This document shows, in pieces, positions 3,315 through 62,321 of a stretch of DNA of 64,000 nucleotides. The translations under genes were made by a program, and so were the position numbers. The notes beneath the pieces are model-generated. The model worked only from the letters and a program-made list of their open reading frames with translations. It searched no databases and had not been told where the DNA came from. Position 1 is the stretch's first letter. Each line of letters begins with the position of its first letter. The stretch comes from Candidatus Caccovivens faecavium. GTDB lineage: Bacteria; Bacillota; Clostridia; Christensenellales; UBA1242. The stretch spans positions 9,101 through 73,100 of the forward strand of contig DVLK01000098.1 in assembly GCA_018715545.1 (NCBI GenBank), given 5' to 3'.

Positions 3315-3590
3315 ATGCTGAGATAGATGGGGAGTTAGCGGTGCCCTGTAACCTGCAATCCGCTATAGCAGGATTGAACGCTTGCTTAGGAGTAATTTGG
3401 TTGAAGATGTGCGTAGGATAGGGGCGTTGAAATCAAGGTCTTATGCAATTGGTAACTCTGAACCATGTCAGGTCCTGACGGAAGCATCATTAAGGAGATC
3501 TATCGATGTGCCATAAGGTAGCTTTGGTGGAGTTTTTGTTCTACGAAACAGTCAGTCTTATTATTTCGAAGCATTCTCTCAGCCATCATC
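3315..3590 (+). ncRNA. ffs: Signal recognition particle RNA, large Bacillus type with Alu domain (scRNA/4.5S homologue)
   Basis: Conserved S-domain string GTCAGGTCCTGACGGAAGCA (~3466-3486). 5'-domain string CTGTAACCTGCAATCCGCTATAGCAGGATTGAAC as in Bacillus scRNA. 5' GCTGAGA (3317-3323) pairs with 3' TCTCAGC (3577-3583). Promoter upstream and terminator downstream. Ends are approximate. Confidence 0.9.
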
Positions 3591-5733: not shown

Positions 5734-5946
5734 CTGACTTTTCATGCTATGCACAAGTTTTGTAGCATTTACCATTTAACAAAAAACATTAGGCATTTAT
5801 TGTTTGTCATATAGCAAAGTAAAATTAGTCGCTATCTATCGCTGAACAAAACCATATTTGCTATTTAACACTGTTTGATTAAATTATAAAAACATGTTTA
5901 TTACGATTTTAACCTAAGTTGGAGATTTAGATAAAAAGGAAGATTT

Positions 5947-43071: not shown

Positions 43072-43308
43072 GTAAAAACGATGATGAAAGACTAGTAGGC
43101 TTGTGGTTTTTCTTACAGAGAGTCCTTTTTGCTGAGATAGGGCAGAAAAAGCAGGTTGAATTCACTTTCTAGTTGCACCTTGAAAGATTTTCGAGTAGGG
43201 GTTGTCGCGTGGGCAGGCGTAATTGTCATAATGAGGTGCTTATATAAGCATGAAATTAGGTGGTAACACGATTAATAATCGTCCTAATATTTTTAGGGCG
43301 ATTTTTTA
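43072..43308 (+). promoter_or_regulatory. T-box riboswitch leader, Phe specifier (UUC)
   Basis: Stem I GA-motif CGATGATGAAAGACTAGTA and AGAGA box (CAGAGAG). Specifier context GAA-TTC-A with TTC at 43161-43163. T-box sequence AAATTAGGTGGTAACACG (43253-43270). Terminator AATCGTCCTAA / TTAGGGCGATT (43277-43303) plus a T-run. Confidence 0.9.
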
Positions 43309-60135: not shown

Positions 60136-61416
60136 ATGAAAGATATTGAAATGTATTGCTCTTTTTGTGGAAAGCCACAAAGTAGCGCCAAAAAACTAAT
60201 TGCAAGCCCTAATGGTGATGCGTATATTTGTGACGATTGTGTCAGGATTTGTCTTGATATTGTTAAACAAGATAGCTTGAAAATCAAAGTCTATAAGGAC
60301 CTTGAAATTCCTTCTCCTAAGGAAATAAAAAAGCAACTTGATAATTATGTGATAGGTCAGGACCAAGCAAAGAAAGTACTTTCGGTCGCTGTATTTAATC
60401 ACTATAAACGAATTAATTACAATAATCATCTTAAACTTGATGGTAAGAAAAAGAAAAATGAAAGTAATGTAGAACTTGAAAAAAGTAATATTCTGATGAT
60501 TGGACCAACTGGTTCAGGAAAAACACTTCTCGTTAAAACTTTGGCAAAAATACTAGATGTTCCTTTTGCTGTGGCTGATGCTACAACCTTGACAGAAGCT
60601 GGTTATGTTGGTGAAGATGTTGAAAATGTACTCTTAAAGCTCATACAAAATGCAGATTATGACATCTCGCGTGCGGAAAGAGGTATTATTTATATTGACG
60701 AAATTGATAAGATTTCAAGAAAGAGCGAAAATCGCTCAATAACCCGTGATGTCGGTGGTGAGGGTGTACAACAAGCTCTACTTAAAATCATTGAAAGCAC
60801 TATTGCATCCGTTCCTCCACAGGGCGGTAGAAAACATCCTCATCAAGAGATGCTTCAAATTGACACAACAAATATTCTTTTTATTTGCGGAGGGGCATTT
60901 GTAGGCTTAGACGATATCATTTATAAGAGAATGGCGTCCTCAGCTCTTGGCTTCAATGCCGAAATAAAAAATTCATCTGAAAGAGCTAAAATTAACTATT
61001 CACAAGATGTTCAGCCTGACGATTTAATAAAGTTTGGTTTAATTCCTGAGTTTGTGGGAAGATTGCCGATAATTACAGGGCTAGATAACTTAGATGCTAA
61101 TGCGTTAGAAAAAATCTTGGTTGAGCCTAAAAATAGTCTGATTAAGCAATATACTGAGCTTTTCAAAATGGATGGCTTTGAGCTCGAATTTGAAAAAGAC
61201 GCAATAGGCTATGTTGCTAACAAAGCATTGGAACTCAAAACGGGAGCAAGAGGGATTAGAACCATAATGGAAACACGAATGACTGAACTTATGTATGATT
61301 TGCCTGACCCTAAGGTGTATGAAAAAGTCATTATAACCAAGGATTTTATGGAAAAAGGAGCAGAGCCAAAACTAATTCGAAGAGTGGAAACCGAACCTAA
61401 GGAAAGTGTTGGCTAA
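60136..61416 (+). CDS. clpX: ATP-dependent Clp protease ATP-binding subunit ClpX
   Basis: Zinc ribbon CSFCGK...CDDC, Walker [11 protein letters not shown], and IYIDEIDK. Confidence 0.97.
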
Positions 61417-61423
61417 TTTTTAG

Positions 61424-61539
61424 GGCGGGCGAAAGAGCGCCTGTGAGGGCGCTTGGCGCGTTACGCGCTAAAATTTTACTTGCAATTTTGAAATAAAAAA
61501 CTAAAAAGTGTTTAAAAGTAAAATTTTCTTTCGCCCGCC
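61424..61539. repeat. Compact four-helix (cloverleaf-topology) palindromic element downstream of clpX
   Basis: P1 GGCGGGCGAAAG (61424-35) pairs with CTTTCGCCCGCC (61528-39). P2 AGCGCC (61436-41) pairs with GGCGCT (61448-53). P3 GCGCG (61456-60) pairs with CGCGC (61464-68). P4 AAAATTTTACTT (61470-81) pairs with AAGTAAAATTTT (61516-27). The helices abut with 0-2 nt linkers. Confidence 0.6.
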
Positions 61540-61637
61540 AATTACAAAAGAAGATATATTTAAGATAAATACAAATATTTAACATCATTAATAAATAGAT
61601 TTAAAAGTAAAATTTTTAAAAATGTTTGTCAAAATAG

Positions 61638-61666
61638 TTGACATGCATAAAATATTGTGCTATAAT
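61638..61666 (+). promoter_or_regulatory. infC-rpmI-rplT operon promoter (full consensus, extended -10)
   Basis: TTGACA (61638-61643), 17 nt spacer, TGcTATAAT (61658-61666). Confidence 0.8.
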
Positions 61667-61673
61667 CACAAGC

Positions 61674-61805
61674 GTATGAAAGTAGAAGTTCCCTTCTCGC
61701 CTGTCGAATTTTGTTTTGACATGGTCACAAAATTTAATAATGATTTATTATATTTTGGTAGGGAGCATTCTTTCTGCCAAAATTTTTTTAAAGGAGATTA
61801 CGACA
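61674..61805 (+). promoter_or_regulatory. Candidate L20-responsive leader with attenuator hairpin upstream of infC
   Basis: A ~130-nt leader. The hairpin GGTAGGGAG-catt-CTTTCTGCC (61757-61778, includes G-U pairs) is followed by AAAATTTTTTT just before the infC RBS. The position matches the Firmicute L20 leader. Confidence 0.5.
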
Positions 61806-62321
61806 ATTTTTAAGGAACAATTAACAAACGAACAAATCACCGCTAGCACTGTGAGATTAATCGGCGAAGACGGTGAGCAATTAGGTGTTATGCCTATTGA
61901 AAAAGCAAGGCAAATAGCTGAAAATGAAGGACTTGACTTAGTTTTAATGTCTGGAAATTCAAATCCTGCTGTTTGCAAAATTATGGATTATGGTAAATAT
62001 CGCTTTGACAGCATTAAGCGCGAAAAGGAATTGAAAAAAAATCAGAAGATAGTAGAGCTTAAAGAGATACAGCTCACTATGCGAATTGACCAATATCATA
62101 TCAATTTCAAGCTTAAAAATGCGCAAAAGATATTACAAGACGGTGACAAAGTTAAAGTGTCACTTAGAATGAAAGGGCGTGAACAAGCATATTCAAAAAA
62201 TGCTGTTGAGGTTGTTGAAAACTTTGTTAACGCGCTTAGCGAATTTGGCTCAGTTGATAAAAAGCCAGAGATTGTTGGAAGAAATGTAATCGTTGTAATC
62301 AATCCAAAAAAGACAAAATAA
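61806..62321 (+). CDS. infC: Translation initiation factor IF-3, probable ATT start codon
   Basis: AAGGAG (61791-61796), 9 nt spacer, ATT (61806). The protein then reads (M)FKEQLTNEQITASTVRLIGEDGEQLGV, a normal IF-3 N-terminus. The ORF-track ATG at 61716 adds 30 hydrophobic residues with no RBS. Confidence 0.85.
   Translation: MFKEQLTNEQITASTVRLIGEDGEQLGVMPIEKARQIAENEGLDLVLMSGNSNPAVCKIMDYGKYRFDSIKREKELKKNQKIVELKEIQLTMRIDQYHINFKLKNAQKILQDGDKVKVSLRMKGREQAYSKNAVEVVENFVNALSEFGSVDKKPEIVGRNVIVVINPKKTK

Follow-up and report, generated by a model that had tools for sequence, protein, structure and literature searches.

The spacer between clpX and the infC promoter of Candidatus Caccovivens faecavium raises the question of what kind of element the GC-rich, perfectly paired DNA within it represents and whether it occurs anywhere else. 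The sequence analysed here (hereafter the window) is a continuous stretch of 64,000 nucleotides. The lineage received its name from chicken-gut MAGs (PMC8035907), and HIT62792.1 of Candidatus Caccovivens faecavium has the same amino-acid sequence as the ClpX protein encoded in the window. The genes upstream are tig-clpP-clpX, and the element begins 7 nt past the TAA stop codon of clpX, i.e. at the eighth nucleotide. Because the promoter of the infC-rpmI-rplT operon is located downstream of the element, the element lies outside the infC leader; a match to the L20_leader model at 61674–61791, which remains below threshold, is also found 3′ of this promoter. Within 10 kb on each side of clpX, the Pfam matches include no transposase, no reverse transcriptase and no recombinase. 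The relevant features of the locus, all on the plus strand, are the following.

60136–61416, plus strand: clpX, assigned by ORF call and Pfam families; its 3′ end abuts the element
61424–61435, plus strand: 5′ arm of the closing stem P1, GGCGGGCGAAAG; the sequence-conserved terminus of the family
61436–61453, plus strand: hairpin 1, AGCGCC-TGTGAG-GGCGCT, present in the minimum-free-energy fold
61456–61468, plus strand: hairpin 2, extended as (G)GCGCG-TTA-CGCGC(T) at 61455–61469, present in the minimum-free-energy fold
61470–61527, plus strand: P4, A/U-rich hairpin, AAAATTTTACTT (61470–61481) with AAGTAAAATTTT (61516–61527); 12-bp stem and 34-nt loop
61528–61539, plus strand: 3′ arm of the closing stem P1, CTTTCGCCCGCC; all 12/12 positions are shared with both the sister lineage and the L020 species
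61600–61616, plus strand: second copy of the 17-mer TTTAAAAGTAAAATTTT, an exact repeat just upstream of the infC promoter and outside the element
61638–61666, plus strand: sigma-70-type consensus promoter of the infC-rpmI-rplT operon, TTGACA, 17 nt, TATAAT; 12/12 hexamer matches

At 61424–61539 (116 nt), four helices tile the spacer with linkers of only 0–2 nt. The closing stem can be extended to GGCGGGCGAAAG(A) at 61424–61436 pairing with (T)CTTTCGCCCGCC at 61527–61539, which corresponds to 13 nt with 100% complementarity, and the P4 arms AAAATTTTACTT/AAGTAAAATTTT are 100% complementary as well. In hairpin 1, the addition of a U-G pair would leave a GUGA tetraloop. The predicted minimum free energy of the RNA is −53.6 kcal/mol compared to a shuffle mean of −30.7 (z = −6.87; 0/200 shuffles as stable), and the corresponding fold is exactly the four-helix topology. 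The coordinates and the four-helix layout after clpX, which a preliminary description had derived from the letters of this DNA, were all recovered on the sequence. The same applies to its remark that the GC-rich arms stand out in AT-rich DNA: the region 61421–61469 has 77% GC versus 35.6% for the window and includes the top 30-nt GC value in the 64 kb. An inverted-repeat scan of the window (GC-rich, perfect, at least 9 bp, spaced 40–160 nt) revealed only this element and one 9-mer, and the outer arm has no second site without mismatches within the window. Coding potential was considered for a 63-aa minus-strand ORF (61397–61588) and rejected, as indels in the sister lineage disrupt this ORF.

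Searches against known RNA classes gave a consistent picture. That the element is not a tRNA, as already proposed, agrees with ARAGORN, which found no tRNA genes in the whole window, and with the Rfam tRNA model, which gave nothing at 61300–61900 even at E ≤ 10. At the gathering threshold, none of the 4227 Rfam models overlaps the element, either in the window or at seven other element loci, and the best sub-threshold match overlapping it reached 19 bits (E = 2.7). The covariance search against Rfam, which had been recommended as a check, hence yielded no family match to the element. In the searchable literature, the arm sequences gave unrelated matches only, and a literature search for a MITE together with a four-way junction returned nothing.

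The clpX–infC spacer was compared among strains and relatives at increasing evolutionary distance. Within the species, ten metagenome contigs carry the element at 99% identity, and only two stem SNPs are found, namely C61438T (L001, L010) and C61450T (L005, L009); both are located in hairpin 1 and both give G-U on the clpX (plus) strand. A sister lineage (L035–L038), with 92% nucleotide identity in clpX and 63% at 4-fold sites, has kept the element. In comparison with the window copy, P1 is 23/24 identical, G61435 is A in L035–L038, and P4 including its loop is 97% identical, versus the 63% observed at clpX 4-fold sites. The block of the two hairpins is 70% identical, yet fully paired: the stem of hairpin 1 is kept with a loop changed from TGTGAG to TATT, and hairpin 2 has changed from GGCGCG-TTA-CGCGCT to GTGCGC-AGTC-GCGCAC with pairing retained. 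In a third congener (L020, L039–L043), ClpX shows 97% amino-acid identity and the clpX 4-fold sites are 33% identical, i.e. saturated. Here, the clpX–infC synteny is the same and the element is located 4 nt past the stop codon. Between the L020 species and the window species, P1 is 24/24 identical and the three inner helices all differ in sequence. Among L041–L043, the arms of hairpin 1 expand jointly, one growing from C4 to C8, the other from G4 to G7.

Other relatives are devoid of the element at this position. The congeners L033 and L034 share the synteny and have neither element nor terminator between clpX and the infC promoter, which also shows that a terminator is dispensable at clpX–infC. 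A fifth congener (L032) has no element after clpX, and a different repeat is found there. In distant relatives (ClpX 81–89% identity), clpX is directly followed by a canonical hairpin with T-tract, and the downstream genes are different ones. The comparison of orthologous spacers, again a check proposed beforehand, thus revealed the element in the sister lineage and the L020 species and its absence in L033 and L034. The preliminary description had reckoned with a spacer that might turn out to be unique and unconserved even in close relatives, which is not what we found.

An additional feature of the spacer is the 17-mer TTTAAAAGTAAAATTTT, which occurs twice and exactly, at 61511–61527 and 61600–61616, as had been reported before. 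In the sister lineage, the downstream copy is inexact and reads TTTAAAAACAAATTTTT or TTTAAAATCAAATTTT, with the hairpin arm unchanged; the exact duplicate is therefore specific to the window species. The suggestion that the second 17-mer enables an alternative pairing is not supported, as this pairing is not conserved given the sister copies (TTTAAAAACAAATTTTT/TTTAAAATCAAATTTT). L034, which lacks the element, still has AT-rich sequence related to the second 17-mer.

Is the element restricted to clpX? We scanned 185,579 species genomes for the two P1 arms at a spacing of 70–100 nt and obtained seven loci; five of them are located in three AT-rich MAGs of uncultured Clostridia, and two are GC-rich chance palindromes. 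The five MAG loci have the order P1, hairpin, hairpin, A/U hairpin in common, and an identical P1 12-mer closes the elements in L019, L020, L021, L023 and L024. A metagenome scan with the arms found two of the MAG loci again. The arms pattern had no match among viral contigs, and blastn against phages and plasmids returned chance fragments only. Two further copies emerged from an inverted-repeat scan of the fetched loci: one at L019 5677–5788, with the P1 variant GGCGAGCAAAAG/CTTTTGCTCGCC that includes two compensated pairs, and one at L032 15293–15414, with P1 TGGGCGGGCGC, between yebC and rny. Matches to the arms in Planctomycete, Acidobacteria and soil contigs (L022, L025–L027, L029, L031) were set aside as chance or unrelated palindromes because these genomes have 60–69% GC and the architecture differs. 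Other copies of the outer arms, for which a genome search had been advised, consequently exist at unrelated loci in related genomes. Their settings are listed below.

clpX–infC copy: 4–7 nt past the clpX stop codon, direct to the neighbouring genes
Copy after the ftsQ-like gene (L019): 0 nt past the stop codon, inverted to the neighbouring genes
Copy after gpr (L021): 0 nt past the stop codon, inverted to the neighbouring genes
Copy after the BNR-repeat gene (L019): 10 nt past the stop codon, direct to the neighbouring genes
Copy upstream of the aminotransferase gene (L023/L024): preceded by a canonical terminator and followed by the next promoter, direct to the neighbouring genes
yebC–rny copy (L032): inside the intergenic spacer, direct to the neighbouring genes

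Altogether, Ca. Caccovivens and related MAGs of uncultured Clostridia show the architecture at six or more intergenic sites that are unrelated to one another. The copy number is low, with one per 64 kb in the window and at least three in one MAG (CAKNGB01, two in L019 and one in L023). The L019 and L021 copies are near-identical and are found in different MAGs with unrelated gene neighbours. Conversely, a canonical terminator takes the place of the element after the ftsQ-like gene in L044, which is related to the L019 organism, and the yebC–rny site of the window species comprises only about 108 nt. The element hence belongs to a dispersed family that is gained or lost between congeners. In family members, the closing stem comprises about 12 bp and contains the P1 core GGCGRGCR, canonically GGCGGGCGAAAG/CTTTCGCCCGCC; it is followed by two GC hairpins of 6–9 bp that are variable in sequence but always paired, and by an A/U-rich hairpin, present in every member, whose stem measures at least 10 bp and whose loop is large. 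Linkers are 0–3 nt and the total length is 111–128 nt; the window copy shows all of these properties. A link to SRP RNA was also considered, as the neighbour protein in L023/L024 resembles the C-terminus of the window protein preceding the SRP RNA gene; it was discarded, there being no SRP RNA at L023/L024.

The structure is retained throughout the family. For 13/13 copies, the minimum-free-energy fold has the same topology (z −6 to −9), and RNAalifold predicted 37 pairs for the non-window types, of which 9 show compensatory changes. When 11 distinct copies are aligned by their stems only, 338/338 cells pair and double changes occur in 22/31 pairs; 0/500 shuffles equal this result, and sliding the 3′ partners leads to 38–56% pairing. 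As the stems were hand-extracted to a common length, the alignment necessarily fits the structure, and its informative point is that each copy has four helices in the same order and of similar lengths. A plain MAFFT alignment of clpX-type copies, in which the hairpins are misaligned, gave no covariation with RNAalifold. In addition, a covariance model (R1), for which only copies from other loci and none of the clpX type were used, finds the window element with 55.7 bits (E = 3.6e-9); with filters off, it detects no other copy in the window.

P1 is the sole helix with conserved sequence, 6/9 of its core pairs being invariant. Between L019 and L030, one copy differs at 8–9 positions, all of which fall into loops or linkers, at a background divergence of 1–2%; among the eight yebC–rny strains, the differences are likewise found in loops and linkers. 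These comparisons show that the sequence of P1 is constrained across saturated divergence and that the inner helices are constrained in their pairing but not in their sequence. Such pairing could be upheld by DNA mutation alone, without selection on the RNA. The joint expansion of the hairpin 1 arms in L041–L043 looks like hairpin-templated DNA mutation, with hairpins forming in DNA, and template-switch mutation may help to keep the stems perfect.

With regard to known classes of repeats, the element has the size and termini of a MITE (116 nt, perfect 12–13 bp termini, no ORF surviving the sister-lineage indels) and is dispersed like one, with at least three copies in CAKNGB01 and absence at the orthologous L033, L034 and L044 sites. 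Neither a target-site duplication nor a common flanking motif was found at the six locus types, and due to the lack of target-site duplications strict MITE membership is not established. Among the roles that had been proposed for the element, that of a miniature inverted repeat is accordingly the best supported, based on the same termini and architecture at unrelated loci and on presence or absence among syntenic congeners, with the missing target-site duplication as the part that does not fit. Several other ideas were rejected or downgraded. A REP/REPIN origin disagrees with the lack of a GTAG head, a unit of ~115 nt with four helices and a single copy in 64 kb. An integron attC site disagrees with the termini GGCGGGCG.../...CGCCCGCC, which are not RYYYAAC/GTTRRRY core sites, and with the solitary position between housekeeping genes. 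The PD-(D/E)XK nuclease beside the L019 copies is a sub-threshold Pfam match only (E = 0.02). Finally, on present evidence the element is not a riboswitch, a ribozyme or another regulatory RNA of a new kind.

On balance, we consider it probable that the window element is one copy of an undescribed, low-copy family of dispersed structured repeats, similar to MITE, ERIC or BOX elements, and that it is co-transcribed with clpX. It would behave like a selfish or domesticated repeat of this kind, the termini of which are probably recognised by a trans-acting protein in a sequence-specific manner, and this would explain its spread. Copies have been gained or lost at single intergenic sites, typically at the 3′ ends of transcription units and often 0–10 nt past a stop codon. 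At clpX, the element may be co-transcribed with tig-clpP-clpX and may fold at the 3′ end of the mRNA into a very stable junction; such a junction would block 3′ exonucleases and act as a weak terminator or insulator before the infC promoter. The role of a 3′-UTR structure or stabiliser, which the preliminary description had listed, may thus apply as well. An empty site at high identity was not encountered, with the copy being present in every strain compared: 10 from the window species, 4 from the sister lineage, 6 from the L020 species and 8 from the L032 species. Since all strains carry their copy, the exact insertion boundaries are not definable, and since no empty site at high identity was found, mobility is deduced from the distribution of copies alone.

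What is known about position and strand is suggestive of an action as RNA at mRNA 3′ ends. The copies start 7, 4, 0, 0 and 10 nt past stop codons, and at the element sites after clpX and the ftsQ-like gene distant relatives have a canonical hairpin with T-tract. For the two inverted copies, the strand that is co-directional with the neighbouring genes folds as well or better. Counting the changes by strand, about 5 G-U pairs speak for the clpX strand and 1–2 A-C mismatches against it, a difference that is not significant; the A-C mismatches are found in P1 of L035–L038 and in hairpin 1 of L048. The L023/L024 copy, which is located after a canonical terminator, argues against a simple 3′-UTR role.

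Several rival explanations have to be weighed against this family of co-transcribed repeats. One of them is a plain clpX terminator in the form of an unusual compound hairpin, without any significance in terms of a family or mobility. The element is indeed located directly after clpX, where distant relatives have a terminator, and in four locus types the terminator scan picks up hairpin 2 together with the U run. At clpX, hairpin 2 with AAAATTTT passes this simple scan, but the scan operates at chance frequency in the window DNA (14 found versus 12.2 expected). The U's start 4–5 nt after the stem of hairpin 2 and are separated from it by an A-run in clpX-type copies, and no U-tract follows the closing stem, in line with the earlier observation that a T-tract is missing after the outer stem. 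Termination at hairpin 2 would also leave the 3′ arms of P4 and P1 untranscribed and thus cannot explain their conservation. With the same element at unrelated loci, also in inverted orientation, we regard a mere terminator as highly improbable. An independently transcribed family of small-RNA genes, trans-acting or protein-scaffolding and equipped with their own promoters, would be in agreement with the strong covariation in four helices and the conserved helix lengths. It would also suit the L023/L024 copy, which lies between a terminator and the next promoter and therefore outside an mRNA, and the two inverted copies, which are antisense to the neighbouring genes. However, no conserved promoter-like sequence is present upstream and no terminator after the closing stem, which leaves the independent sRNA role considered in the preliminary description unsupported. 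Outside the closing stem, none of the unpaired nucleotides is conserved and the loops are the most variable parts, so that there is no obvious seed or binding motif, and congeners do without the element. Small-RNA genes of this type appear improbable to us.

A different view would be that the element acts as DNA, i.e. as a folded single-strand substrate of recombination or transposition comparable to attC or REP/RAYT, with the RNA structure as a by-product. A structure-specific tyrosine recombinase or HUH enzyme would then read the closing stem and the junction geometry. This would be consistent with a P1 sequence that is conserved across saturated divergence and unlinked loci, next to inner helices that keep their shape only, and with the occurrence of both orientations; the absence of target-site duplications is expected of HUH or tyrosine-recombinase chemistry. 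The joint expansion of the hairpin arms implies that hairpins form in DNA, two opposed copies flank a 3.7 kb non-syntenic segment in L019, and an indel breakpoint is located 0–6 nt from the 5′ end of the element in the L032 species. Nevertheless, we rate a function as DNA as unlikely: a candidate enzyme gene is found beside none of the copies, no empty/filled pair with exact boundaries was found, most of the SNPs in the stems give G-T on one strand, in better agreement with RNA than with DNA, and the copy number is low. Retrons represent the last system to be mentioned here. Their msr-msd region is bounded by inverted repeats and contains short hairpins on the 5′ side and a long one on the 3′ side. 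The architecture of the element resembles this arrangement, and it could be read as an orphan retron-like non-coding RNA that is served by a distant reverse transcriptase, with P1 as a1/a2, the short hairpins as msr and the long hairpin as msd. But no reverse transcriptase (RVT family) is encoded within 10 kb of clpX or beside the other copies, the candidate priming G, located where the 5′ arm ends on its inner side, is A in L035–L038, and multiple dispersed orphan copies are, to our knowledge, not a known retron arrangement. A retron origin is therefore scarcely credible and was rejected.

A more far-reaching thought, which we put forward as quite unlikely, is that of a structure-dependent genetic element read by a dedicated trans-acting enzyme or, alternatively, of the RNA component of a ribonucleoprotein. 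In the former case, a recombinase, HUH nuclease or junction-specific nuclease would recognise the closing stem by its sequence and the folded single-strand four-way junction by its geometry. Mobilisation by this enzyme would leave no target duplications, and the element could also serve as a border at which gene segments are exchanged, an idea based on the two opposed L019 copies that bracket the 3.7 kb non-syntenic segment.

For the preferred reading, a dispersed family of structured repeats, the consequences are of a more practical nature. The family provides a candidate for Rfam or Dfam, as a well-supported covarying element from poorly studied, uncultured gut Clostridia. The conservation of P1 while neutral sites are saturated implies a trans-acting factor, which could be sought by its phylogenetic co-occurrence with the element. 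Repeats of this type are hot spots of insertion and recombination; they make MAG assembly more difficult and can be used to mark strains. At the clpX locus, the element may influence the stability of the clpX mRNA and read-through into infC-rpmI-rplT.

How does the family relate to repeats that are already known? With REP/REPIN and attC elements it shares a GC-rich composition relative to the genome, a location at gene 3′ ends and the absence of target-site duplications, and with attC also conserved ends around a variable folded interior. It differs in having no GTAG head, a length outside 20–40 nt, no arrays or cassettes and four helices rather than one, and no RAYT or integron integrase gene was seen beside the copies. 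MITEs such as Correia and bcr1 are likewise short, noncoding and dispersed, carry perfect terminal inverted repeats of 12–13 bp and show insertion polymorphism between related genomes. In contrast to MITEs, the element has no target-site duplication at any copy and no cognate insertion sequence was identified in the scan for arms at 70–100 nt spacing. Moreover, its interior shows compensatory evolution, which is not expected of a neutral MITE interior.

The BOX element (boxA-boxB-boxC) of Streptococcus pneumoniae is a modular intergenic repeat from the Firmicutes, the terminal modules of which pair around a multi-helix structure. It is noncoding, suspected to be mobilised in trans and can affect neighbouring genes. 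The element described here is also a noncoding repeat of the Firmicutes with a closing stem around several helices. BOX, however, is present in more than 100 copies per genome with conserved module sequences, whereas our family has few copies, only P1 is conserved, and it forms a near-perfect junction with linkers of 0–3 nt. ERIC is an imperfect palindrome of about 120 nt that resides in intergenic, transcribed regions near gene ends in both orientations. It has a low to moderate copy number, is present or absent between close species, is conserved above neutral expectation and is thought to fold in mRNA. Length, intergenic gene-end sites, both orientations, few copies, presence/absence and conservation above neutral expectation are properties that it has in common with the element; there is no sequence similarity, ERIC stems from a different phylum, and it is one long hairpin, whereas the element is a four-way junction in which only the termini are conserved in sequence and the inner helices vary. 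The family is absent from Rfam and we regard it as new; by analogy it appears to work most like ERIC or BOX.

In the clpX–infC spacer of a congener (L032; ClpX protein P0123), the place held in the window by the four-helix element is taken by a copy of a second dispersed repeat family, which is larger than the four-helix family and occurs in several spacers:

L032 1798-2220, second-family repeat
L032 9634-9910, second-family repeat
L032 11300-11545, second-family repeat
L032 14776-14975, second-family repeat

Across the eight strains of this species with a four-helix copy between yebC and rny (L046-L053), this spacer is as short as 410 nt and as long as 1174 nt. One indel has its breakpoint within 0-6 nt of where the four-helix copy has its 5′ end.

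At a locus of a related uncultured Clostridia genome (L019 1830-5801), a 3.7 kb segment is flanked by a pair of oppositely oriented four-helix copies. Besides a tRNA gene, the segment encodes a 397-aa protein without known identity, a BNR-repeat protein and a 165-aa PD-(D/E)XK-like protein, the last assigned by Pfam at E = 0.02 only. In a relative of this organism, the same ftsQ-like gene is followed by serS, ftsA and ftsZ in place of the segment. Arms of the closing stem also occur as strays: one copy at L019 has its 3′ arm in tandem duplicate (5777-5801; CTTTTGCTCGCC AATTTTGCTCGCC), and a solitary arm-like GGCGAGCGAAAA precedes another copy by about 170 nt (L023 7676-7687; L024 6271-6282).

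Microviridae-like prophage genes (Phage_F, Chlamy_scaf, REP_ORF2-G2P) were found near the region in some strains and species, and are missing in the other contigs covering it:

L003 17107-21281, strain of the window species, starting about 3 kb past the window's right end
L034 19015-21281, similar set at the syntenic position in a related species

Two further structured RNAs of the window are compatible with a Firmicute origin:

3318-3582, large bacterial SRP RNA (160 bits)
43072-43289, T-box leader (119 bits)

The AT-rich spacer that separates the element from the infC promoter (61540-61637) shares 91% identity with the sister lineage, whereas 4-fold sites of clpX show only 63%; judged from this difference, the spacer is under an unexplained constraint. 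Further downstream, a sub-threshold match to L20_leader (RF00558; 61674-61791; 38.2 bits versus a gathering score of 58.7) lies upstream of infC-rpmI-rplT and includes a terminator-like hairpin (61752-61783) followed by a T run. The only infC start given by the ORF tool is a TTG upstream of an in-frame ATT at 61806. This ATT, preceded at 9 nt by the ribosome-binding site AAAGGAG (both within 61790-61808), is probably the infC start, and an AUU start codon is the classical hallmark of IF3 autoregulation.
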